64,000 nt of DNA, taken from the NCBI GenBank assembly GCA_963820525.1, contig CAWGAA010000003.1, positions 416,001-480,000 on the forward strand, read 5' to 3'. This stretch comes from an uncultured Spirochaetota bacterium (GTDB lineage: Bacteria; Spirochaetota; Spirochaetia; SZUA-6; Fen-1364). Below the pieces are notes generated by a model. That model had not been told where the DNA came from. It did no database searches and saw nothing but the letters and a program-made list of their open reading frames with translations. Below are positions 3,355-13,706 of this stretch, piece after piece (positions within the stretch are counted from its first letter, which is position 1; the number at the start of each line of letters is the position of its first letter). The position numbers and the translations under genes are program-made.

Positions 3355-4719
3355 TCAGCCTACCTTGGGAAGGGCCAGCTCGGCCTTCATGATGGCCGCC
3401 TCGGGATACTCGTAGTCCTCCATCTTTCCGCTGAAGTACTGCTCGTAGGCAGCCATATCGAAGTGGCCGTGGCCGGAGAGGTTGAACAGGATCACCTTCT
3501 TTTCCCCCGTTTCCTTGCACTTCTTGGCCGCCCTGATCACCGATACGATGGCGTGGGCGGACTCGGGGGCGGGGATGATCCCTTCCGTGCGGGCAAAGAG
3601 CACGGCAGCCTCGAAGGTTTCCTTCTGCTTCAACGCTTCGGCCCGGATGATCCCCTTGGCGTTGAGAAGGCTCACGATGGGCGATGCCCCGTGGTAGCGC
3701 AGGCCTCCCGCGTGCACGGAGGGCGGGATGAAATCGTGCCCCAGGGTGTACATCTTGGCCAGGGGAATGAGCTTTCCCGCGTCCCCGAAGTCGTAGGCGT
3801 AGATTCCCCTGGAGAGCGACGGGCAGGCTAGGGGCTCGGATGCGATGAACTCGATATCCCTCTTGCCCGAAAGCTTGTCCTCGATGAAGGGGATGGCGAT
3901 GCCGCCGAAGTTGCTCCCGCCGCCGTGACAGGCGATCACGATGTCGGGCATCAGTCCCAGCTCTTCGAGCACGGCGCGCGCCTCCAGCCCTATCACCGTC
4001 TGGTGCATGAGCACGTGGTTGAGCACGGAGCCAAGGCAATATTTGACCTTGCCGCCTGAGGTGGCCGCTACCTCGACCGCCTCGCTGATGGCGATGCCCA
4101 GGGAGCCGGGGTAGTTGGCCTTGTTCTCCAGCATCTTCTTTCCAATGTTCGTTTCCTTGGATGGGCTGGGCGTCACCTTGGCGTTGTAGCATTCCATCAT
4201 GATCTTTCTGTACGGCTTCTGCTCGTAGGAGGCCCGGACCATGAAAACCTTAACGCCGACGTTGAAGTGGACGCCGGCAAAGGCCAGGGCGCTGCCCCAC
4301 TGCCCCGCCCCCGTCTCCGTCACGAGGTTCTTCACGCCCTCTTTCATGTTGTAGTAGGCCTGGGCGACGGCCGTGTTGGGCTTGTGGCTTCCCGTGGGCG
4401 TCACGCTCTCGTTCTTGAAGAAGATCATGGCGGGTGTTCCGAGGGCCTCCTCGAGGAACTTGGCCCTGATCAGGGGCGTGGGCCGGAAGAGAGAATACAC
4501 CTTGAGCACCTCGTCGGGGATCACTATCTCCCTCTGACTGGAGACCTCCTGCTCCAGCAGGCCCATGGGGAAAAGGGGCGTAAACGCCTCCAGCGGTACG
4601 GGCTTGCCGTCGGCCGGGTTGAGCATGGGCGGAAGCGGCTCGGGAAGGGAGGGAAGAATGTTGAGCCACTTCTTGGGGATCCCATGGGTTGGGAGTTGGA
4701 AGATCCTGTTGTCGGTCAT
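3355..4719 (-). CDS. trpB: TrpB2-type tryptophan synthase beta chain (stand-alone)
   Basis: GSHKPN PLP lysine, TETGAGQWG, CHGGGSN, HAGGLRYHG, PAPESAH, NLSGHG; 454 aa with the N-terminal extension of TrpB2; no trpA adjacent. Confidence 0.93.
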   Translation of the reverse strand: MTDNRIFQLPTHGIPKKWLNILPSLPEPLPPMLNPADGKPVPLEAFTPLFPMGLLEQEVSSQREIVIPDEVLKVYSLFRPTPLIRAKFLEEALGTPAMIFFKNESVTPTGSHKPNTAVAQAYYNMKEGVKNLVTETGAGQWGSALAFAGVHFNVGVKVFMVRASYEQKPYRKIMMECYNAKVTPSPSKETNIGKKMLENKANYPGSLGIAISEAVEVAATSGGKVKYCLGSVLNHVLMHQTVIGLEARAVLEELGLMPDIVIACHGGGSNFGGIAIPFIEDKLSGKRDIEFIASEPLACPSLSRGIYAYDFGDAGKLIPLAKMYTLGHDFIPPSVHAGGLRYHGASPIVSLLNAKGIIRAEALKQKETFEAAVLFARTEGIIPAPESAHAIVSVIRAAKKCKETGEKKVILFNLSGHGHFDMAAYEQYFSGKMEDYEYPEAAIMKAELALPKVG

Positions 4720-4811: not shown

Positions 4812-4842
4812 AAAATAAAAAAACCCGGGCTCATGCCCGGGT
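4812..4842 (-). terminator. Second intrinsic terminator in the trpB2 leader
   Basis: Minus strand ACCCGGGC-ATGA-GCCCGGGT followed by TTTTTTATTTT. Confidence 0.8.
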
Positions 4843-4852
4843 CTTCGCGCAT

Positions 4853-5016: not shown

Positions 5017-5044
5017 ATGATGCATATCTATTCATTCTTGTCAA
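5017..5044 (-). promoter_or_regulatory. Candidate sigma70 promoter for trpL-trpB2
   Basis: TTGACA (5044-5039), 16 nt, CATCAT; overlaps the end of the LysM gene. Confidence 0.5.
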
Positions 5045-6430
5045 CTTTTTTTTCAGGCAGGGGCGCCGGCGCGAGGGGCCCGGAAGCGCCGCCACCGATG
5101 GAAAGCTCCGAGCCGGGATAGATGAGGTTGGGGTCCTGGATGCCGTTTCGTTTTTGCACCTTGTTCAGGAAATCGAACCAGCTGCCCTGCACGAGCCCTT
5201 CCACCTTGAGCGAGAGGTAGATTTTCCACAGGCTGTCGCCCGCCCTCACGGCATAGGAGAGCCCTTCGGCCTGGTTCCGGGGTTTTTCCTGGTTCTGCGC
5301 GGATGGAACGATCGAGGCCGAAGCATGCTGGAGGGCAGGGGTCCTGGCGGGCATGGGCCGGAGGAAGAGATAAAAGAGGACTGCCAGCGCGATGACGGCG
5401 AATGCGGCGCATCCAAGAAGCACTCCCCGCGGAATGCGAGGGCCTTTCCCTTCCGAAACCCGCCGGGAACGTTGCCCGCCGGCGGGCGAGCTTCTCACCG
5501 CGGGAGGCTGGATATGGAGCACGGGCGGCGGCCCGGCTTTCACGTGAGCGGCTCGTCTGGGGGTCTTTACGGGGGCTTCCTGCTTCACCGCGGCGCCGCT
5601 CCTCAGGACCGGAGCCCTGGCGCGGCGCACCGTCTTCACAACCTTCTGTTTTAGCTCCCGCTTCGAATCAAGCCCCTCTGGCGGACCGCTCGCCCGGGAC
5701 AGGGCTTCATCCGAGAAGTATTTGTCAAGGAAAAAGGAAGCTGAATCGCTGGTGATCCCTTTCCTGCCGGGACCGCTCTCCTCCCATTCCAGCGGATCAT
5801 CCGCCGCGCTTGCCGTCTTTCGAAGCTCGGCCCACAGTGCCCGATAGTCGGCCGACGGGACGCCTCGCCTTTTTACACGCGCTGCAAGGGAAGGCGAGCA
5901 ATATGAGAGAACGGAAAAAATGAGCTGGAAGTTCTCGTTGCTCAAGTCTTCGCGCAGCGAAAGCAGGTAGAGATGCAGAAGGACCGAGGGATTGGCGATC
6001 CTCTTGACCTCCTGCCCGATCTCCAGGCCTTTCTTCACAAGCACGCGCTTCTCCAGATACGTGTATTGCGTAATCTCGAAGAGAAGCGGTTGGGGGATGG
6101 GCACCTCCGCTTTGAAAAGGACCCCGAGACAAACTGGAACTGCGGGAGGCTCAAGCTGCCGGGGATGGTGCAGGTGAAGAACCGAAGAATACGCTGGGGC
6201 GGGGAGCCCATGAGGTGAAGGAGGCAGCCTACCAGGAGCGACGCCTCCGTGGACATCGGGGCACGCTCCATCATCTGTTCTCGGATCCTCTTTCGCGCGG
6301 CAGGGAAGAGCTCGGGCCGAAGCTCGACGGAAAGCGCTTTCCACGTGCCGGGGAGATCCAGCGGCGCGCCTCGAAAAGGGCTTTCGAGGAGGTCTCTCAG
6401 TCGACTTTGGAGCGTTCTTTCCCGGGGCAT
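5028..6430 (-). CDS. Membrane-anchored LysM-domain protein (apparent frameshift at ~6126)
   Basis: C-terminal LysM (YAVRAGDSLWKI...NGIQDPNLIYPGSEL) preceded by a TM helix (VLLGCAAFAVIALAVLFYLFL). ORF 6430-6035 joins the 497-aa frame at FQFV/LGVLFK if one C is added. Confidence 0.7.
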
Positions 6431-6492
6431 ACCGAAGCCATTCGCATCCGCTTGCGGCGGCGCCGCCTCTGGAGCGGAAATGTGCGTGAAAA

Positions 6493-6521
6493 ATCGTAGC
6501 TGAGAGAGGGAAACGTGTCAA
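6493..6521 (-). promoter_or_regulatory. Sigma70 promoter of the LysM gene
   Basis: TTGACA-17 nt-TACGAT; the ORF-track TTG start at 6521 is this -35 box. Confidence 0.7.
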
Positions 6522-6620
6522 GGAAAACTTGTGCCGCCTGTCGCGGGTAATTTTTATTCATTTCAAGGCCGAGAATTATGCTGGGGGCACCGACCGGGAC
6601 CGCCCGCGAAAGGGAAACAT

Positions 6621-7430
6621 GTGCTGACGAAGATCACCAGGTACAAGACTCAAGGCAAGAAGCGGGCTCTGGCCATCTCCTATCGCAGGAGGACGAAGAG
6701 CGCGCTCCTCGCCCTTGCCCGCAGCGTCATCCTCTGCAATACCGTGGAATCTGTGGACGCGGCGGCCGCGCTCGCCCAGGTGATCAGCCGTGAGGGCATG
6801 AACAACCGCAATTACCTGCTGTTTCTCGTTGTGTTGGATACCAATAACCCCCACGTCATCGACGTGCTCATCGGGCGGAGAAACCCGTACCTGCTTTTTT
6901 CTCCGATAAAGCCGAATTGGTTTCTCATCAAGGAGACCTTCCGCATCCTGGCGAAATACAAGGTGAACGAGCTCTGCGAGAAGGCGCTCCTCGCCCTCAT
7001 CGGCGTGGTGCAGAACGCCTATAAAGCATCAAAGGACGGTCACCGAATCTATCCCCTGAGCCTCTCCGCCGTCTACTCGATAGGAAAGTACCTGGACAAG
7101 GAGAAGGACCAGCTGGATGAACGCAACAGGCTGCTCCTGGAGATCCTTTTCGACATCTATTTCGTGGGCATCGACAGCGAGGACAATAACGCAATACGGG
7201 TGGGGATCCGGGCGAACGATATCCGCATGGCGTATTTCGACAACACGAAAAAGATGGTGGACGTCATTCCCCACGTTCTGCTCCTTCACGAAGAGGCCCG
7301 GCCTCCCATCGCCCCGCTTTATTTCGCGGGCGCGGGAAAAAGGGAAGCGCAGGAAAGAAAACCGGGCAAAAATCGCCCGGGGGAGCGCACCCAACCCCGT
7401 TCCCGCCGAACACCCTCACGCCCGAAATAA
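6621..7430 (+). CDS. Unknown-family paralogue 1 (basic N- and C-tails)
   Basis: GTG 6621 after AAGGGA; shares the motifs GMNNRNYLLF, N..VIDVL, SIGKYLD, NRLLLEIL and IRMAYFD with the four downstream genes. Confidence 0.8.
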   Translation: MLTKITRYKTQGKKRALAISYRRRTKSALLALARSVILCNTVESVDAAAALAQVISREGMNNRNYLLFLVVLDTNNPHVIDVLIGRRNPYLLFSPIKPNWFLIKETFRILAKYKVNELCEKALLALIGVVQNAYKASKDGHRIYPLSLSAVYSIGKYLDKEKDQLDERNRLLLEILFDIYFVGIDSEDNNAIRVGIRANDIRMAYFDNTKKMVDVIPHVLLLHEEARPPIAPLYFAGAGKREAQERKPGKNRPGERTQPRSRRTPSRPK

Positions 7431-7432
7431 AT

Positions 7433-7461
7433 TTGACAGCCCGCCGACGACGAACTACACT
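7433..7461 (+). promoter_or_regulatory. Sigma70 promoter upstream of paralogue 2
   Basis: TTGACA-17 nt-TACACT. Confidence 0.75.
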
Positions 7462-7516
7462 ATTACTATAGGCATTACATTCGGGCATCGGCTCGTGAGT
7501 CCGCAGGGAGGCAGAA

Positions 7517-8233
7517 ATGCTTCAGTTTCCGATACTCACATTCTGGAGCGAGGATGACCTGTACAAGCTCCAGGTGCAGGCGGTCTCCTGGTTCCTGAGA
7601 TGCGACTCTCCCCGCAGCGTGGAGGCGTCTCTGGAGTTCGCGCGATACCTGAACTCCAAGGGCCTCGACAGCGACAACTACCCGCTCTTCCTGGAGATGC
7701 TGAGGAACGAGAACGGCTTTGTCGTGGAAGCGCTGGTAGGCAGGGAGAAGGCTTTCGATCTGTTCACGCGCGTGCAGCCGAACCCCTATATCCTCGATTT
7801 CTGTTTCCAGATGCTTCGTCAGTACTCGGTTGGAGGGGTGCACGATCTCACCCTGGAGATCATCTTCGGCATCCTGTACCGCACGTATCACAGCGCCAAG
7901 GAGGGGTACATGCTCCATCCCCTCACCGTCGAGGACGTGAACTCCATCGGGAAATTCCTGGACAAGTCCCGGGACCAGAACAATTCCATCAACCGGTTCA
8001 TCCTCGACATCCTCACGGACATCTCGGAGTATCGCTCCATCAACAACGAAAACCCCGCCGTCGACAGAGTATCCTCTCACGCGACGGCTATCCGAAACGC
8101 GTTCTTTGACAGGAAGAAGAAAATGGCCAGCGTGATGCCCTCGGAGATCCTGGTACGCAAGGAGTATTCCGAGACTCTCGTGCGGCCGAGGAAGCAGAAG
8201 AAATTCACCGATACCGAGAAAACAGGAGAATGA
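7517..8233 (+). CDS. Unknown-family paralogue 2
   Basis: SD GGGAGG; GLDSDNYPLFL, DVNSIGKFLD, NRFILDIL, IRNAFFD. Confidence 0.88.
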   Translation: MLQFPILTFWSEDDLYKLQVQAVSWFLRCDSPRSVEASLEFARYLNSKGLDSDNYPLFLEMLRNENGFVVEALVGREKAFDLFTRVQPNPYILDFCFQMLRQYSVGGVHDLTLEIIFGILYRTYHSAKEGYMLHPLTVEDVNSIGKFLDKSRDQNNSINRFILDILTDISEYRSINNENPAVDRVSSHATAIRNAFFDRKKKMASVMPSEILVRKEYSETLVRPRKQKKFTDTEKTGE

Positions 8234-8246
8234 GAGGAGGTAGCGC

Positions 8247-8939
8247 ATGGCTCAAATGGACGAGTTCAACAGGGAGGTGTGGTCGGAGGATTCGATATTC
8301 CGGGTCGAAAACCACATCATCAACAACATCTTCGCCGGTAGGACGGTGGACGCGGTGGAGGCGGCGATCACCTACACGTCTTTCCTGCGCAGGAGCGGCC
8401 TGACCAATGAAAACTACCCGCTGTTCCTCAAGCTGCTGGAAATGGACAATCACTTCGTGATCGACTCCCTGCTGGGGAGCACGGACCCCTTCCTGTTCCT
8501 CACCCCAATCCAGCCCACCAAGCACCTGGTATCCACGTGCTTCAGGCTGCTCACCAACTGGCACCCCGGAGGCATCTACCCCAAGACCCTCGCCATCGTG
8601 CTGGGTGCCCTCCAGGCGACGTACAGCTACGCCAAGGACGGATACAAGATCCACGATGTGTCCATCAATGACGTGAACAACCTGGGCAAGCACCTGAACA
8701 AGGAAAAGGGCCAGGACGAGCCGGTGAACAGGGCCATCCTCGATATTCTCGACCGCCTTGCCTCCCTCGAGGGACAGGGAGACGACGCGATGGAGCTCAT
8801 CGCCCGGCAGTGCAACGTGATCCGCGGCAACTTCTTCGACAAGCGCCGCAAGATGGAAGACGCGATTCCCCAGGTTCTCCTGGTCAAGTCCGACTTCCTC
8901 GTGAAAGAGGTTCTTCCGAGCCTCGTGTTCGAAGATTGA
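8247..8939 (+). CDS. Unknown-family paralogue 3
   Basis: SD GAGGAGG; GLTNENYPLFL, DVNNLGKHLN, NRAILDIL, IRGNFFD. Confidence 0.88.
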   Translation: MAQMDEFNREVWSEDSIFRVENHIINNIFAGRTVDAVEAAITYTSFLRRSGLTNENYPLFLKLLEMDNHFVIDSLLGSTDPFLFLTPIQPTKHLVSTCFRLLTNWHPGGIYPKTLAIVLGALQATYSYAKDGYKIHDVSINDVNNLGKHLNKEKGQDEPVNRAILDILDRLASLEGQGDDAMELIARQCNVIRGNFFDKRRKMEDAIPQVLLVKSDFLVKEVLPSLVFED

Positions 8940-8961
8940 CGATTCGACAGGAGGGTGAGAT

Positions 8962-9819
8962 ATGGTAATTCTTGACAGACAGAAGACCTATACGGCAAAG
9001 GAGATCGCGGCCATCGAGAACAAGATGCTGGGCGGGATTCTGGCGTGCCGGACGACGGAAGCGGTGGAGGCTGCCATAACGTACGCCCGCTTCCTGAACA
9101 AGACCGGCTTGACGGCGGAAAACTATCCTCTCTTCATCAAGGTGCTGGAGATCGGCAACCACTGGGTCATCGATGCGCTCATCGGCACCCGGGATCCGTT
9201 CCTGTTCTTCAGCTCCATCCAGCCCAACTACCAGCTGCTCACAGCGGCGTTCAACCTGCTGGCGGAAAGACACCCGGGGGGCCTGTACGCGAAGTCCCTC
9301 TCCGTGGTGCTGGGCATCCTCCAGGCGGCCTACAACGTCCCCATCGACGGGTACAAGATCTACGGCCTGACGGTGTCGGACCTCAACGCCCTGGGCAAGC
9401 ACCTGGACGAGGAAGCCGGCCAGGAGGATTCGCTCAACCGCTGCATCCTCGACATATTGGAGAAGGTTGCGCAACTGGAAGGCCTGGATGCGGCCAACCG
9501 CGACATGGAAGAGGTGGCGATCCACGCCAACGAGATCCGAAACTTCTTCTTCGACAGCACCAAGCACTTGAACGAGGTCATCCCGCCCGTGCTCCTGGTC
9601 CGCATGAGCTACAAGGACTTCGAGGTGCCGCCGCGCAAGGAAGTCGAGTTCACCAAATCGAAGCTGTTTGACACGGACAAGATCGCCAAGGAGCAGATCA
9701 ACATCAGGGTGTCCTCGCGCGGTCAGGGCACCACCAAGGAAGCCAAGGAAGCGCCCGCGCCGGCTGCCCCGAAAAAGAGCACCGAATCTTCCGGCGGCTC
9801 CGGGCGGAAGACCAAGTAG
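8962..9819 (+). CDS. Unknown-family paralogue 4 (low-complexity C-tail)
   Basis: SD AGGAGG; GLTAENYPLFI, DLNALGKHLD, NRCILDIL, IRNFFFD. Confidence 0.88.
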   Translation: MVILDRQKTYTAKEIAAIENKMLGGILACRTTEAVEAAITYARFLNKTGLTAENYPLFIKVLEIGNHWVIDALIGTRDPFLFFSSIQPNYQLLTAAFNLLAERHPGGLYAKSLSVVLGILQAAYNVPIDGYKIYGLTVSDLNALGKHLDEEAGQEDSLNRCILDILEKVAQLEGLDAANRDMEEVAIHANEIRNFFFDSTKHLNEVIPPVLLVRMSYKDFEVPPRKEVEFTKSKLFDTDKIAKEQINIRVSSRGQGTTKEAKEAPAPAAPKKSTESSGGSGRKTK

Positions 9820-9921
9820 TCGAGTCGGATCTCACGGGGGCGCCGCGGGGTGCGAGCGCGCTCTTAAGTCCCGTGTCGCCCTTCACTGTTCGCCTGAGCT
9901 TGAGGAAACGAAGGTAAGCCC

Positions 9922-10626
9922 ATGGACGTGAAAAAGCTGAAAGAGGAAGCGAAGGTAGGCCATATATCCCAGGATTATATAGACTACCTCAAATACAGGT
10001 TCATCATGGAGGTGCTGGACTCCCCTGATACCCCATCGGCAAACGCCCTCTGGGCATACGCGAGCTTCTTGAACGATCACGGGATCAACAGCGACAACTA
10101 TCCACTGTACATCGAGCTTCTTGCCAGCAACAACAAATCCGCCATCGACGCGCTTCTGGACGGCCACGATCCGGAGAAGTACTTCGATTGCGTGACGCCC
10201 AACCCCTATATCGTCAGGGCCACCTTCGAGACCTTTGCCCGGTTCAAGAGCAACGAGATCTACGATAAATCCCTGAGGGTATTCCTGGGATTCCTCTTCA
10301 AAGTGTACGAGTCCTCGGAGGTGGGCTACCAGTTGTATCCCCCATCAATCGCGGATGTGAACAACCTTGGAAAGTTCCTCGACGAATCGAAGGACCAGGA
10401 GTTCCCTCTCAACCGGGGCATCCTCGACTGCCTGGGGTGTCTGGCGGATTTGGAGAAGCCCCATGAGACGAGCATCGAAAAGCGGGAGCTCGCCGCTCAA
10501 GCCGGAAGGATCCGCTCTGATTTCTTCGACGCCAAGCGCCGCCTGAACCAGTCCATTACCGAGGTGATACTGGAGAAGGCCAAAAAGCCGACCTTCGGGG
10601 TACCCCCCGAGCATATCTACGGATAG
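9922..10626 (+). CDS. Unknown-family paralogue 5 (most divergent core)
   Basis: GINSDNYPLYI, DVNNLGKFLD, NRGILDCL, IRSDFFD. Confidence 0.85.
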   Translation: MDVKKLKEEAKVGHISQDYIDYLKYRFIMEVLDSPDTPSANALWAYASFLNDHGINSDNYPLYIELLASNNKSAIDALLDGHDPEKYFDCVTPNPYIVRATFETFARFKSNEIYDKSLRVFLGFLFKVYESSEVGYQLYPPSIADVNNLGKFLDESKDQEFPLNRGILDCLGCLADLEKPHETSIEKRELAAQAGRIRSDFFDAKRRLNQSITEVILEKAKKPTFGVPPEHIYG

Positions 10627-10673: not shown

Positions 10674-11600
10674 TCAACCCTTCTTGCCCTTTCCGTAAAT
10701 GGCCCGGAAGGTCTTTCCCATGTCCAGGTACTTGTCCTCTCCGGAGGGTGCCGCAGCGGCGGGGAACTGGCTCTCGAAATAGCCGCGCACATAGTCGATT
10801 CGCTTGAGAATGTTGGCCGCGACCGTCCTTGCCAGCGTGGAGCGGTCTTTCTGGAAACGGAGGCACACCTTGCAGAGCTCCAGGAGCATCTTCTTGCCTA
10901 CCGGCTTGAAGGCGTTGAAGCGGATGTTGAAAAACTGCATGTCGTAGCCCTGGAAGTGCTCCAGCTTCAGGGGGGTCAGGTATCGCGTCTTCTCGGTTCT
11001 CTCCCAGCCGAAGGTTTTAGGACGTCCCTTGATCTTCACGCCCTCGTGGAGCAGGTCCACGTTCGAGTAATCGATGGCGATGACGATCTGGTCGTCCTTG
11101 GAGTTGTATCGGATCATGTAGTTGTTGGGGTTTCTGTCCTCATCGTAGTAGATCCAGCGGTTGATCAGGTCCAGGAGGAGCTGCTCCTTGAGCTGAAGGA
11201 TGTCGGTATAGTTGGCCCCTGAAAGCTGCTCCGCATGGGTGATGATCTTCGTCGCCTTGTACAGCGTGCCGCCGATGCGCGTCACGATGGTGGGGGCTGA
11301 AATGGTCCGCGAGAAGAAATCGAGGAAGAAGCAGATGGAGCCCATCGCGGCCCGCACCGCCTCATCCGCCGCGATGGGCTTCACGATCCAGCTCTCCCCG
11401 GGGTTGTCCCGCTCGACCGCGCCGACGTAATCGCGCACCTCCGCGAAGAAGGGGATTTTCAGGGACTGATCTATGGACAAAAGGTCGTCCACGGAGAGCT
11501 TCTTCAAGAGCTGCTCGTAGCTCTGGTCCGCGCACAGGAGATGAATCAGCTCCGCATCGCGGAGAAAGCGCGGAACCTCGGAATAGTCGAAGTATCCCAT
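10674..11600 (-). CDS. Atypical kinase, PI3K/PI4K-HipA-like fold
   Basis: SD GGAGG; WIVKP (ATP-binding Lys candidate), catalytic-loop-like DEDRNPNNY, metal-binding-like AIDY. Confidence 0.75.
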   Translation of the reverse strand: MGYFDYSEVPRFLRDAELIHLLCADQSYEQLLKKLSVDDLLSIDQSLKIPFFAEVRDYVGAVERDNPGESWIVKPIAADEAVRAAMGSICFFLDFFSRTISAPTIVTRIGGTLYKATKIITHAEQLSGANYTDILQLKEQLLLDLINRWIYYDEDRNPNNYMIRYNSKDDQIVIAIDYSNVDLLHEGVKIKGRPKTFGWERTEKTRYLTPLKLEHFQGYDMQFFNIRFNAFKPVGKKMLLELCKVCLRFQKDRSTLARTVAANILKRIDYVRGYFESQFPAAAAPSGEDKYLDMGKTFRAIYGKGKKG

Positions 11601-11639: not shown

Positions 11640-12587
11640 CTAGCGATAGTCGTCCATGACGTAGCGGCGCGGCTTGAGCTCGAGATCCGCGTACTTCACG
11701 TTATAGCCGGAAGAGGAGCGAATCGACAGGTACGGGCATATCGTCTCCAGCGTGTCGTAGAGGATGACGTGATCGTGGGTGCCGAGGATATCGATCCAGA
11801 TCGAATCCTGCTCTCCCCACGTCCACATCGGGTTGTGGCCCACGATGAACGGGATGCTCTTGGGGCAGCCCAGGAGTCGCCTCGTCTCGTCCAGGTCCTC
11901 GGGCCCGTACTCCTTCATGCTCGGGGTGGAGCGCGTCTCGTTAAGCCTGTTCCACGTGAGCTGCCAGAAGTAGTTGTCGAAATGCCGAACATTGATGAGC
12001 TCGTTCCTGGTGATCCCGCCCCGCACGGGGCCGGCGTGCGTTGCCAGGAACCAGCGGTGGATCACGAACAGGGGCAGCGCATCGTAGAGCTCCTGCATCA
12101 GCTCCACGTACCGCTTGCCCCGCGCCTTGGCCAGCGCCTCCCGCCAGAATAGGCCCTGCTGGATGCCGCGCTTGGAGAGCTGGGGGTTGAGGGAGTCGTG
12201 GTTGCCCAGGATGTAGATGACGTTGTCGGGATACTCGTTGAGAAGCTCAATGATGATGTCCATGGTCTCGATGGAGGAGTCCATTTCGTAGGCGAAACCG
12301 GTCTTGTCGTTATGGACGGCGTCGCCGAGGAAGAGCAGCACCGCCTTGTTCTGCCGGACCTTCGACAAATTGTCCGAATCCTTGAGGATTGCGCGAAGGT
12401 TCTTGAAGTTGCCATGCAGGTCCCCAATGACTATGAACTCCCTCTTCTCGCTGCGAGCAAACTCGATCAGCCCCCCGGGGCGGCCGTCGGAGCCGGCGGG
12501 ACGCAAGCTCTCATCCAGGGAGAGGACCTTGGCCACAGCGTCTTGAAGGAGTTTGGAGTGTCGATCGCGAACGCCGCGGACGCCCAT
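11640..12587 (-). CDS. Calcineurin-like (PPP-type) metallophosphoesterase
   Basis: GDLHGN, LGDAVH, GNHD, THAGP, VGHN. Start moved to ATG 12587, just after the PPIase stop. Confidence 0.88.
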   Translation of the reverse strand: MGVRGVRDRHSKLLQDAVAKVLSLDESLRPAGSDGRPGGLIEFARSEKREFIVIGDLHGNFKNLRAILKDSDNLSKVRQNKAVLLFLGDAVHNDKTGFAYEMDSSIETMDIIIELLNEYPDNVIYILGNHDSLNPQLSKRGIQQGLFWREALAKARGKRYVELMQELYDALPLFVIHRWFLATHAGPVRGGITRNELINVRHFDNYFWQLTWNRLNETRSTPSMKEYGPEDLDETRRLLGCPKSIPFIVGHNPMWTWGEQDSIWIDILGTHDHVILYDTLETICPYLSIRSSSGYNVKYADLELKPRRYVMDDYR

Positions 12588-12594
12588 TGCTGCC

Positions 12595-13605
12595 TTACTG
12601 GAAGTCGACCAGCTCCACTTCGAAGACCAGAAACGAGTCGGGAGGAATGGCGCCTGGATATCCCCTCTCGCCATAGGCGAGCTCCGGCGGAATCACCAGC
12701 AGCCGCTTCTCGCCCTTCTTCATTGCGGCGAGCGCTTCGTTCCATCCCGGGATCACCTGCCCGATCTTGAACTGGGCGGGGCTGCCCCGCTCGATCGAGC
12801 TGTCGAATACCCTTCCGTCGAGGAACTTCCCCGTGTAGTTCACGGTCACCAGAGCGCCGGCCGCGGGGCTCGGGCCGTTTCCCGTCTTGAGCGCCTGGTA
12901 CATGAGGCCGGATTTTGTGGTCGTGAGCTTGGGCCACCGCTTCTGGATCTGAGTCAGGGCGGACTTCCTGGCTTCGGCACGCTTCTCCCCAAGGCCTGCC
13001 TTGGCTTTAGCCACCATGGCGTCGAAGCCGGCCTGGCTGGCCGTGAACGCCTTGGCCGCAGCGCCGATGCGCAGGATCTTGACGCTCACGATCTTGTCTC
13101 CCTGCTTGACGCTCTTCACCACGTCCATGCCCTGCACGACGCGGCCGAATACCGTGTATCCGCCGTCGAGCTGGGGGAGCTCCTTGAGAGTGATGTAGAA
13201 CTGGCTGCCGTTTGTGTTGGGCCCGGAGTTGGCCATGGCGAGGATGCCCGGCGCGTCGTGCTTCAGCTCCGCCACGATCTCGTCGGGAAACGAGTAGCCC
13301 GGGCCGCCGGTGCCGTCTCCTCGGGGATCGCCGCCCTGGATGATGAAATCCGCCACGACGCGGTGGAAGGTGAGCCCGTCGAAAAAGTGCTTGCCCTTCG
13401 AGCCGTTGGCGGAGATCGTTCCCTCGGCAAGACCGACGAAGCTTGAAACCGTCAAGGGAGCCTGCTGGAAGGCCAGGCTGCACACGATCAGTCCCCGGGA
13501 TGTATTGATTTGAGCGTACAGGCCGTCCGGCAGGCTCGTGGTTTCGGCGTGAGCGGCCATAACGGCCACCACAAGGGAAGAGGCGATAAGAAAAGTGTAT
13601 TTCAC
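12595..13605 (-). CDS. Peptidyl-prolyl isomerase, cyclophilin-FKBP fusion with signal peptide
   Basis: FHRV, IQGGDP, MANSGPNTNGSQFYIT (cyclophilin); VNYTG, FDSS, VIPGW, IPPELAYG (FKBP); GTG start 13605. Confidence 0.92.
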   Translation of the reverse strand: MKYTFLIASSLVVAVMAAHAETTSLPDGLYAQINTSRGLIVCSLAFQQAPLTVSSFVGLAEGTISANGSKGKHFFDGLTFHRVVADFIIQGGDPRGDGTGGPGYSFPDEIVAELKHDAPGILAMANSGPNTNGSQFYITLKELPQLDGGYTVFGRVVQGMDVVKSVKQGDKIVSVKILRIGAAAKAFTASQAGFDAMVAKAKAGLGEKRAEARKSALTQIQKRWPKLTTTKSGLMYQALKTGNGPSPAAGALVTVNYTGKFLDGRVFDSSIERGSPAQFKIGQVIPGWNEALAAMKKGEKRLLVIPPELAYGERGYPGAIPPDSFLVFEVELVDFQ

Positions 13606-13706
13606 GCGCCAGTGATAGCCCCTTCCACCGGCCGCTGTCAAGGGACTCACGATGGAGCGTTTACAAAGCCTGATCCGAGGGGTAAATTCTGGATTGAGGC
13701 TACCGA

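Follow-up and report, generated by a model that had tools for sequence, protein, structure and literature searches.

A stretch of 64,000 nucleotides (nt) from an uncultured Spirochaetota bacterium (contig CAWGAA010000003.1, positions 416,001 to 480,000; hereafter the window) carries at positions 6621-10626 five tandem genes for divergent members of one protein family, followed by genes for a putative kinase and a metallophosphoesterase. None of the catalogues, structures and papers examined describes the family or the module that it forms with these neighbours. The kinase and the phosphoesterase are strictly coupled to the expanded form of the family, and two of its members, C and D, are, as judged from sequence divergence, its slowly evolving core. 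These results suggest that the five proteins, which are non-redundant and predicted to be soluble, may be members of a hetero-complex under phospho-control, with C and D at its core, a reading drawn from genomic data to which we give an even chance.

Five tandem paralogues of an uncatalogued family

The original prediction described five consecutive same-strand paralogues of an unrecognised domain, which share seven motifs in the same order, are preceded by ribosome-binding sites, use host-like GC-ending codons and lack a transmembrane (TM) segment. The paralogues are named A to E by gene position, and F denotes any family member. Their open reading frames (ORFs) are as follows.

6621-7430, + strand: paralogue A, 269 amino acids (aa) from the GTG at 6621, or 299 aa from an alternative in-frame GTG at 6531
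7517-8233, + strand: paralogue B, 238 aa
8247-8939, + strand: paralogue C, 230 aa, first member of the core pair and basis of the structure model
8962-9819, + strand: paralogue D, 285 aa, second member of the core pair
9922-10626, + strand: paralogue E, 234 aa

The ORF listing and a MAFFT alignment of the five proteins bear this description out. The identity to A is 31% for B, 31% for C, 35% for D and 27% for E, 28 columns are invariant across all five paralogues, and C and D, which are 47% identical to each other, are the closest pair. All seven motifs are present in the order given (e.g. GLTNENYPLF, NHFVIDSL, QPN/QPT, GYKIH, LGKHLNKEKGQ, NRAILDIL and IRGNFFDKRR). Many of the 28 invariant columns are polar (N, Y, K, Q, R, D), and Y126, G132, K148, L150 and D198 are at least 90% conserved among 60 diverse family members. 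The alignment of the five paralogues contains no cluster of conserved His, Cys or Glu residues. The likeness of the five proteins is not due to chance, because each of them has its own orthologues in other genomes. When the 5.05 Mb, 4-contig genome is searched with a profile of the five proteins, exactly five matches are obtained, all of them in the array.

Purine-rich sites are found before all five starts, with AAGGGA preceding the start codon at 6621, which is GTG and not ATG, and GGAGG-like sites located 5-12 nt upstream of genes 2-5. The intergenic gaps are 86 nt (A-B), 13 nt (B-C), 22 nt (C-D) and 102 nt (D-E). The G+C content at third codon positions (GC3) of the five genes is 0.77-0.87, close to the 0.82-0.86 of four neighbouring genes. 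The maximum mean Kyte-Doolittle value over 19 residues is 1.48 across the paralogues, indicating that they contain no TM segment. Paralogue A, the gene of which is fast-evolving, has a basic, disordered-looking C-terminal tail, and paralogue D has a tail of ~55 aa in which K, S, T, A and P are abundant.

The family is as unrecognised as had been supposed. In Pfam, the five window proteins give two chance-level rows only (E 0.24-0.4), and 34 diverse relatives give nothing above threshold, a single HEAT_PSME4_mid row reaching 19 bits against a cutoff of 25.2. NCBIfam, PADLOC (PADLOC-DB 2.0) and PHROGs contain no match for the five paralogues, and the best E value in profile searches of the family against PDB sequences is 0.036. 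When 1.84 billion cluster representatives are searched exhaustively with a profile, only 218 match at E<=0.001. A word-seeded search gives 1397 proteins; the 120 listed are all named 'hypothetical protein' and carry no precomputed Pfam domain. In the ESM Atlas, the best feature score of paralogue C is 0.86, with low recognition and unrelated clusters. A 60-sequence profile detects no fused forms among proteins of 500-2000 aa, which is weak evidence. Full-text literature searches on the spirochaete module, armadillo/HEAT proteins and partner switching returned no description of the family or the module.

The high-confidence AlphaFold2 model of paralogue C, built with a 60-sequence alignment, has a predicted local distance difference test (pLDDT) score of 95.7 and a predicted template modelling (pTM) score of 0.90, and consists of twelve helices with no strand. 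Foldseek finds no PDB match to this model at E<=0.001, its best rows being armadillo and designed helical repeats (E 0.16, TM-score ~0.3). In a wide VIA-align structural search, the top match is CNOT9 (4cru_B; Z 7.9, root mean square deviation (rmsd) 9.5, 179 residues aligned), followed at Z 6.3-7.8 by adaptor trunks, formin DID, HspBP1, VHS/ENTH and importin-like repeats; scores of Z 6-8 are reached by many ARM proteins. Z values of ~6-8 are uninformative for helical repeats by the tool's own note, and unrelated helical repeats score higher. No enzyme-like fold is present among the rows listed in either search. An internal duplication is rejected, because alignment of residues 25-120 with residues 121-215 of the 60-sequence profile by hhalign gives a probability of 0.9%. 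A 14-3-3-like phosphopeptide binder, an idea suggested by the size, helicity, paralogy and kinase context of the proteins, finds no support, no 14-3-3 chain being among the 50 VIA-align rows listed. As modelled, the family is a generic compact ARM/HEAT-like alpha-solenoid, in fold class only and with no specific relative. The ring, filament or lattice put forward in the original prediction finds nothing in its favour, the predicted fold being a compact ARM-like solenoid.

The C-D pair, copy number and genomic partners

A search of public genomes confirms 209 stretches with the family, of which 72 loci were kept. The closest loci come from peat, fen and soil metagenome-assembled genomes (MAGs) with the label Spirochaetia or Spirochaetota and have 61-71% identity to A; less similar loci bear the labels Treponemataceae, Rectinemataceae and Sediminispirochaeta. 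A minority is labelled Myxococcota/Polyangia, Desulfobacterales, SAR324 and Acidobacteriota/Vicinamibacteria. The family is present in 16 of 40 relatives, namely in 14 of 21 genomes of the sister genus, ten of them with exactly five tandem copies, and, with two copies each, in two genomes from a different family within the order. In an even sample of 401 Spirochaetota genomes it is present in 16, and the large families hold it in 0 of 75, 0 of 38 and 1 of 50 genomes; many carriers are incomplete MAGs. Among 73 loci, the number of F genes is four in 32, two in 15, five in 14, three in seven, one in three, seven in one and eight in one, and many of the small counts arise from contig ends. In some Spirochaetaceae/Treponemataceae the paralogue set occurs twice within ~8 kb (L035:8451-20334; L073:633-11052; G357 contig C1, ~2.269-2.280 Mb). 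Two of the three repeated genes of L035 are identical between the copies and the third is nearly so, indicating a recent segmental duplication.

ORFs were called on all loci, and family members were marked by a hidden Markov model. A tree was built with IQ-TREE (quick, LG+G4) from 127 members of 35 of the 73 loci, chosen so as to have complete clusters and a range of architectures. The clades of this tree track gene position and thereby define five orthogroups, A to E. Orthogroup A (21 rows; Shimodaira-Hasegawa-like approximate likelihood ratio test (SH-aLRT) support 96) takes in the gene that precedes the phosphoesterase gene in four-copy loci. Apart from SAR324 and one eight-copy locus, five-copy loci are the sole source of orthogroup B (11 rows, support 99). 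Orthogroup C (37 rows, support 97) takes in the first gene of every pair. Orthogroup D (36 rows) consists of three well-supported subclades, which form a joint clade in the best tree with the weak support of 47. Orthogroup E (22 rows, support 96) takes in the last gene of four-copy loci. Within Spirochaetota, the orthogroup subclades group related lineages, and the gene order is conserved. The original prediction regarded the five copies as non-redundant, and held that singletons, or variable copies without orthologous subgroups, would speak against this. Five positional orthogroups are resolved instead and are kept across genomes, and 10 of the 21 sister-genus genomes hold all five copies, which argues for non-redundancy.

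The identity to the nearest relative is 91-92% for C and D and 72-73% for A and B, indicating that C and D evolve slowly. The window C is 54-59% identical to its orthologues from Acidobacteriota, Myxococcota and Desulfobacterales, and the window D is 47-53% identical to the orthologues in non-spirochaete pairs. The number of invariant columns is 65 among C orthologues and 63 among D orthologues, as compared with 28 across all five paralogues, and such orthogroup-specific invariant columns fit subfunctionalisation of the paralogues. Each of 11 two-gene loci examined has one C and one D, adjacent and in that order.

The neighbours of the array in the window that recur with the family elsewhere are as follows.

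10674-11600, - strand: KIN308, predicted atypical kinase of 308 aa, convergent with the array, recognised by fold match and invariant motifs
11640-12674, - strand: calcineurin-like metallophosphoesterase, 344-aa ORF, Pfam Metallophos PF00149 at E 3.6e-14 (54.1 bits against a cutoff of 21.5)
5028-6430, - strand: gene for a bitopic TM-LysM protein, divergent from A, LysM PF01476 at 22.1 bits against a cutoff of 20.9

KIN308 is single-copy in the window genome. It gives no Pfam or PDB-sequence match as a single sequence, and 16 members together match neither PI3_PI4_kinase (PF00454), HipA_C nor any other Pfam family at E<=1 and give 0 rows at E<=10 in a profile search of PDB sequences. The motifs WIxK (K73), DEDRNPNNY (D152-Y160) and AID(Y/F) (A174-I-D176) are invariant in the 16 sequences; by analogy with family motifs rather than by superposition, they would provide the ATP-binding lysine, the catalytic-loop Asp/Asn and the metal-binding Asp. 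The AlphaFold2 model of KIN308 (pLDDT 80.6) matches Helicobacter pylori CtkA (Z 14.9, rmsd 3.5, 215 residues aligned), PI4KII-alpha (Z 14.2), Fam20 (Z 13.5), MavQ (Z 12.3), HipA (Z 12.1) and CotH (Z 11.9), to which it is ~10% identical over the aligned residues. Foldseek gives 103 matches at E<=0.001, and the 46 rows listed are all PI3K/PI4K or CtkA. KIN308 is thus modelled as an atypical kinase of the PI4KII/CtkA fold with intact-looking catalytic motifs.

In the phosphoesterase, the motifs GDLH, GD..H, GNHD, HAGP and GHNP are invariant among 11 sequences (D84, H86, D117, N157, H158, H212, H279), and on this alignment its metal-ligand motifs are judged intact; a protein-phosphatase (PPP) role is suggested for it. 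Its true start is probably the internal ATG (Met) at ~12587, which gives a protein of ~315 aa, because the first 29 residues do not align with the orthologues and the ORF overlaps the ORF at 12595-13650 by 80 nt. Neither PADLOC nor PHROGs contains a match for the kinase or the phosphoesterase.

The link of the family to these two enzymes, which the original prediction saw as its possible controls, is borne out by their distribution. The kinase is located within 6 kb of the family in 43 of the 73 loci and the phosphoesterase in 46. Among the 401 Spirochaetota genomes, the kinase is present in 12, all of which are among the 16 with the family, and it is on the same contig wherever both positions are listed. 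At loci with C and D only, the kinase and the phosphoesterase are never nearby. The LysM gene adjoins the array (<=6 kb) in 27 of the 73 loci. In an alignment of the LysM proteins, a conserved cytoplasmic N-domain is followed by a linker of low complexity, a TM segment and, at the C-terminus, the LysM domain. The LysM protein was also considered as a hidden sixth paralogue and rejected (hhalign probability 0.2%).

A further partner is a Pkinase-domain protein of 580-730 aa (Pkinase E 8e-14 to 4e-17), which lies within 6 kb in 32 of the 73 loci. It is a pseudokinase that lacks the HRD and DFG aspartates in 13 of 13 aligned sequences, with a loop like IVYRCLNAEN and KPGY at the DFG position. Its kinase domain matches PD-T4-6 and similar PADLOC models. 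The pseudokinase gene is not found in the window genome, which gives a generic kinase-domain match on another contig only. The pseudokinase of L053 (11563-13620) and its 12 orthologues have a conserved C-terminal region of ~220 residues beyond a disordered linker, which has no Pfam match and the motifs of which may resemble those of a degenerate P-loop (AAA_16/STAND-like) domain. In spirochaetes, the most frequent arrangement has A, phosphoesterase, kinase, C, D, E and pseudokinase in this order on one strand; some lineages also have the LysM gene, divergent from A. In the window, the LysM gene on the - strand is followed by A to E on the + strand and by the kinase and phosphoesterase genes on the - strand.

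The C-D pair occurs alone, with a small protein termed S, in Myxococcota, Acidobacteriota and Desulfobacterales. Protein S is encoded by an uncatalogued ORF of ~70-100 codons with a conserved core of ~45 residues, and adjoins the pair in 11 pair-type loci of four phyla. It is not found in any four- or five-copy locus, nor in the window genome, which is 96.7% complete. Receiver-domain proteins of 640-1060 aa adjoin the pair in four loci of Acidobacteriota, Myxococcota and Desulfobacterales. They share an N-terminal receiver domain and an SPFS motif and otherwise consist of a long Glu/Lys/Arg/Ala-rich region, which is read from its composition as a coiled coil; this architecture may be like that of FrzS/AglZ. 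The ORFs are as follows.

L046, 8933-9175: S
L067, 8938-9177: S
L077, 2533-2775: S
L063, 5946-6203: S
L047, 10974-11189: S
L032, 10853-11086: S
L076, 10801-11016: S
L072, 2108-2404: S
L087, L070 and L069: S
L069, 10906-14016, - strand: receiver-domain protein
L070, 13594-16764, - strand: receiver-domain protein
L047, 11274-13616, + strand: receiver-domain protein
L032, 11147-13075, - strand: receiver-domain protein

In four Spirochaetales loci (L046:6724-13261; L067, L077 and L063), the genes for an RsbW-like HATPase_c_2 protein, S, C, D, a 362-aa protein, a STAS protein, an alpha/beta hydrolase and a second STAS protein are arranged on one strand, and the divergent side encodes a ParA/MinD-like ATPase together with a protein whose C-terminal domain resembles S. 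The 362-aa protein was considered as a relative of KIN308 and rejected (hhalign against the kinase profile, probability 0.3%). With these three partner sets around C and D, the core pair is found with three kinds of phospho-signalling partner.

Other features of the window are as follows; the two enzymes are housekeeping proteins, the genes of which have no conserved adjacency to the module elsewhere. No tRNA genes are found in the window.

7433-7461, + strand: sigma-70-like site TTGACA-17-TACACT between A and B, weak (four sites against 2.1 expected)
4819-4846, - strand: terminator-like hairpin of 12 pairs followed by a T-run, just past the LysM gene, consensus match only
3355-4719, - strand: TrpB-like pyridoxal phosphate (PLP) enzyme, NCBIfam E 7e-208
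12595-13650, - strand: FKBP-type peptidyl-prolyl isomerase, E 2e-35

A proposed phospho-controlled complex and its alternatives

C and D are proposed as a core complex because they are the closest and slowest-evolving members, are always adjacent and are present in several phyla; the tight spacing of the B, C and D genes also speaks for a complex. According to this proposal, C and D would form an ancient core complex, which A, B and E would join as accessory paralogues in this spirochaete lineage. The adjacent PI4KII/CtkA-fold kinase would act as writer and the adjacent metallophosphoesterase as eraser of phosphate groups that switch either the assembly or a client in its groove, and the K/S/T/P-rich tails of A and D would be candidate phosphorylation sites. 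The LysM protein may, in many lineages, link the complex with both the inner membrane and the peptidoglycan. On this reading, which draws on genomic associations, the paralogues would bind one another and the substrate of the kinase would be a protein, namely the paralogues or their client. More tentatively, and as a possibility that we rate clearly below the complex itself, C and D may be an ancient bacterial ARM-like heterodimer, accompanied in its minimal form by the ~45-residue core of S and ~50-60% identical between Spirochaetota and Acidobacteriota, Myxococcota and Desulfobacterales, that acts as the output or scaffold of a new kind of cell-organising machine. Its phospho-inputs would be lineage-specific (a receiver with a coiled-coil-like region, an RsbW/STAS switch, or the trio of kinase, phosphatase and pseudokinase), and spirochaetes would have a five-subunit, peptidoglycan-tethered form of it.

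Several findings weigh against a phospho-controlled complex. The copy number is two, four or five depending on the lineage, so that any complex would be variable in make-up. Five of the 14 five-copy loci have no kinase or phosphoesterase gene within 6 kb; two of these end at contig edges and three do not. The structural relatives of KIN308 include lipid kinases (PI4KII, MavQ) besides protein kinases (CtkA, HipA, CotH, Fam20), and its substrate class is therefore not fixed by the fold. The phosphoesterase may act on nucleotides, its top NCBIfam match being ApaH, which is weak (E 4e-4). The fold matches of the family are at noise level for helical repeats, even at the top Z of 7.9. For the suggestion in the original prediction that the TM-LysM neighbour could anchor the system, the recurring adjacency described above speaks in favour, and the lack of a LysM gene near the Treponema-type loci speaks against. 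In addition, the window LysM gene is frameshifted near 6100-6210, and the orthologues elsewhere are continuous. The ORF at 6035-6430 contains the N-terminal ~115 codons of this gene, and from ~6209 downward the gene continues in the frame of the ORF at 5028-6521. With the L022 orthologue as query, tblastn yields one match in each of two frames (E 2e-15 and 2e-43). This frameshift is either a real lesion or a long-read assembly error.

The alternative that survives best is that the paralogues are separate peptide- or protein-binding adaptors or sensors, each with its own clients and without co-assembly, clustered because they share regulation by the kinase and phosphatase. Importin-alpha and 14-3-3 isoforms in eukaryotes are separate adaptors of this type with their own clients. 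ARM-like solenoids often bind extended peptides, the polar character of many of the 28 invariant columns is as expected for a shared binding groove, and the variation of copy number among lineages is easily accommodated. This alternative accounts less well for the constant association of C and D, which are together and adjacent even in distant phyla, and for their very high conservation across phyla, which suggests constraint over most of the surface. We consider it rather unlikely, if worth keeping in view.

It is improbable, to a greater degree, that the module is a small-molecule system, in which the family binds or acts on a phosphorylated lipid or nucleotide that the kinase produces and the phosphoesterase breaks down. 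The lipid kinases among the top matches of KIN308 (PI4KII-alpha and MavQ), the ApaH match of the phosphoesterase, weak as it is, and the five residues conserved in at least 90% of 60 members would fit such a system. However, the family has neither an enzyme-like fold match nor a conserved His, Cys or Glu cluster, and the contexts with STAS and RsbW-like proteins, the pseudokinase and receiver domains are protein-level signalling devices. That the array is a mobile or defence-related island rather than a core cellular module is very improbable: its patchy presence (16 of 401 Spirochaetota genomes) and the PD-T4-6 match of the pseudokinase domain, which is expected of any Ser/Thr kinase domain, are outweighed by the lack of PADLOC and PHROGs matches for the paralogues, kinase and phosphoesterase, the host-like GC3, the lack of a tRNA in the window, the orthogroup subclades that follow related Spirochaetota lineages and the conserved gene order.

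If the five paralogues do form a complex under phospho-control, it would be a new bacterial signalling output and a likely client for the orphan PI4KII/CtkA-fold kinase class; if it is tethered through the LysM protein, it would bear on envelope organisation in free-living spirochaetes. Its significance is limited in that most carriers are uncultured. Across several phyla, C and D are conserved as strongly as proteins with essential roles and multiple partners usually are, and the five orthogroups, the kinase and the small protein S together are a clean target for Pfam/InterPro curation.

Comparison with known systems

Kinase-switched helical-repeat scaffolds assembled from paralogous subunits are a staple of eukaryotic cell biology, and to our knowledge few are known in bacteria. 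The family is like the ARM/HEAT adaptors (CNOT9 4cru_B, the AP-3 trunk 9c58_D, mDia1 DID 8fg1, MEILB2 7ldg and designed armadillo proteins), at the level of fold class only, in being composed entirely of stacked helical hairpins or triplets, as modelled, with Z values of 7.9-7.3 over 103-184 residues. It differs from them in having no Arm, HEAT or other Pfam repeat match and no detected internal repeat. Partner-switching modules, which combine an RsbW/SpoIIAB-type kinase with STAS anti-anti-sigma proteins, are resembled by the four Spirochaetales loci, in which the C-D pair is in a same-strand run with HATPase_c_2 and two STAS proteins. This context is absent from the window, and the five paralogues have neither a STAS nor a HATPase domain.

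KIN308 resembles CtkA, PI4KII-alpha, HipA, CotH and Fam20 in predicted fold, in the lysine of WIxK, in a motif like the DxDRNxxN loop and in AID(Y/F), and differs from them in showing no match at the sequence level, with an identity of ~10%. The bacterial operons that encode a eukaryote-like Ser/Thr kinase and a phosphatase, such as PknB/PstP and PrkC/PrpC, are similar to the module in that a kinase and a phosphatase are encoded with their presumed targets, and a Pkinase-domain protein is a frequent neighbour here as well (32 of 73 loci). In contrast to these operons, the kinase of the module is PI4KII/CtkA-like and not of the Hanks type, the putative phosphatase is a metallophosphoesterase and not PP2C, and the Hanks-type member lacks the HRD and DFG aspartates. 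The partners of these enzymes in the module are two to five paralogues of an uncatalogued family.

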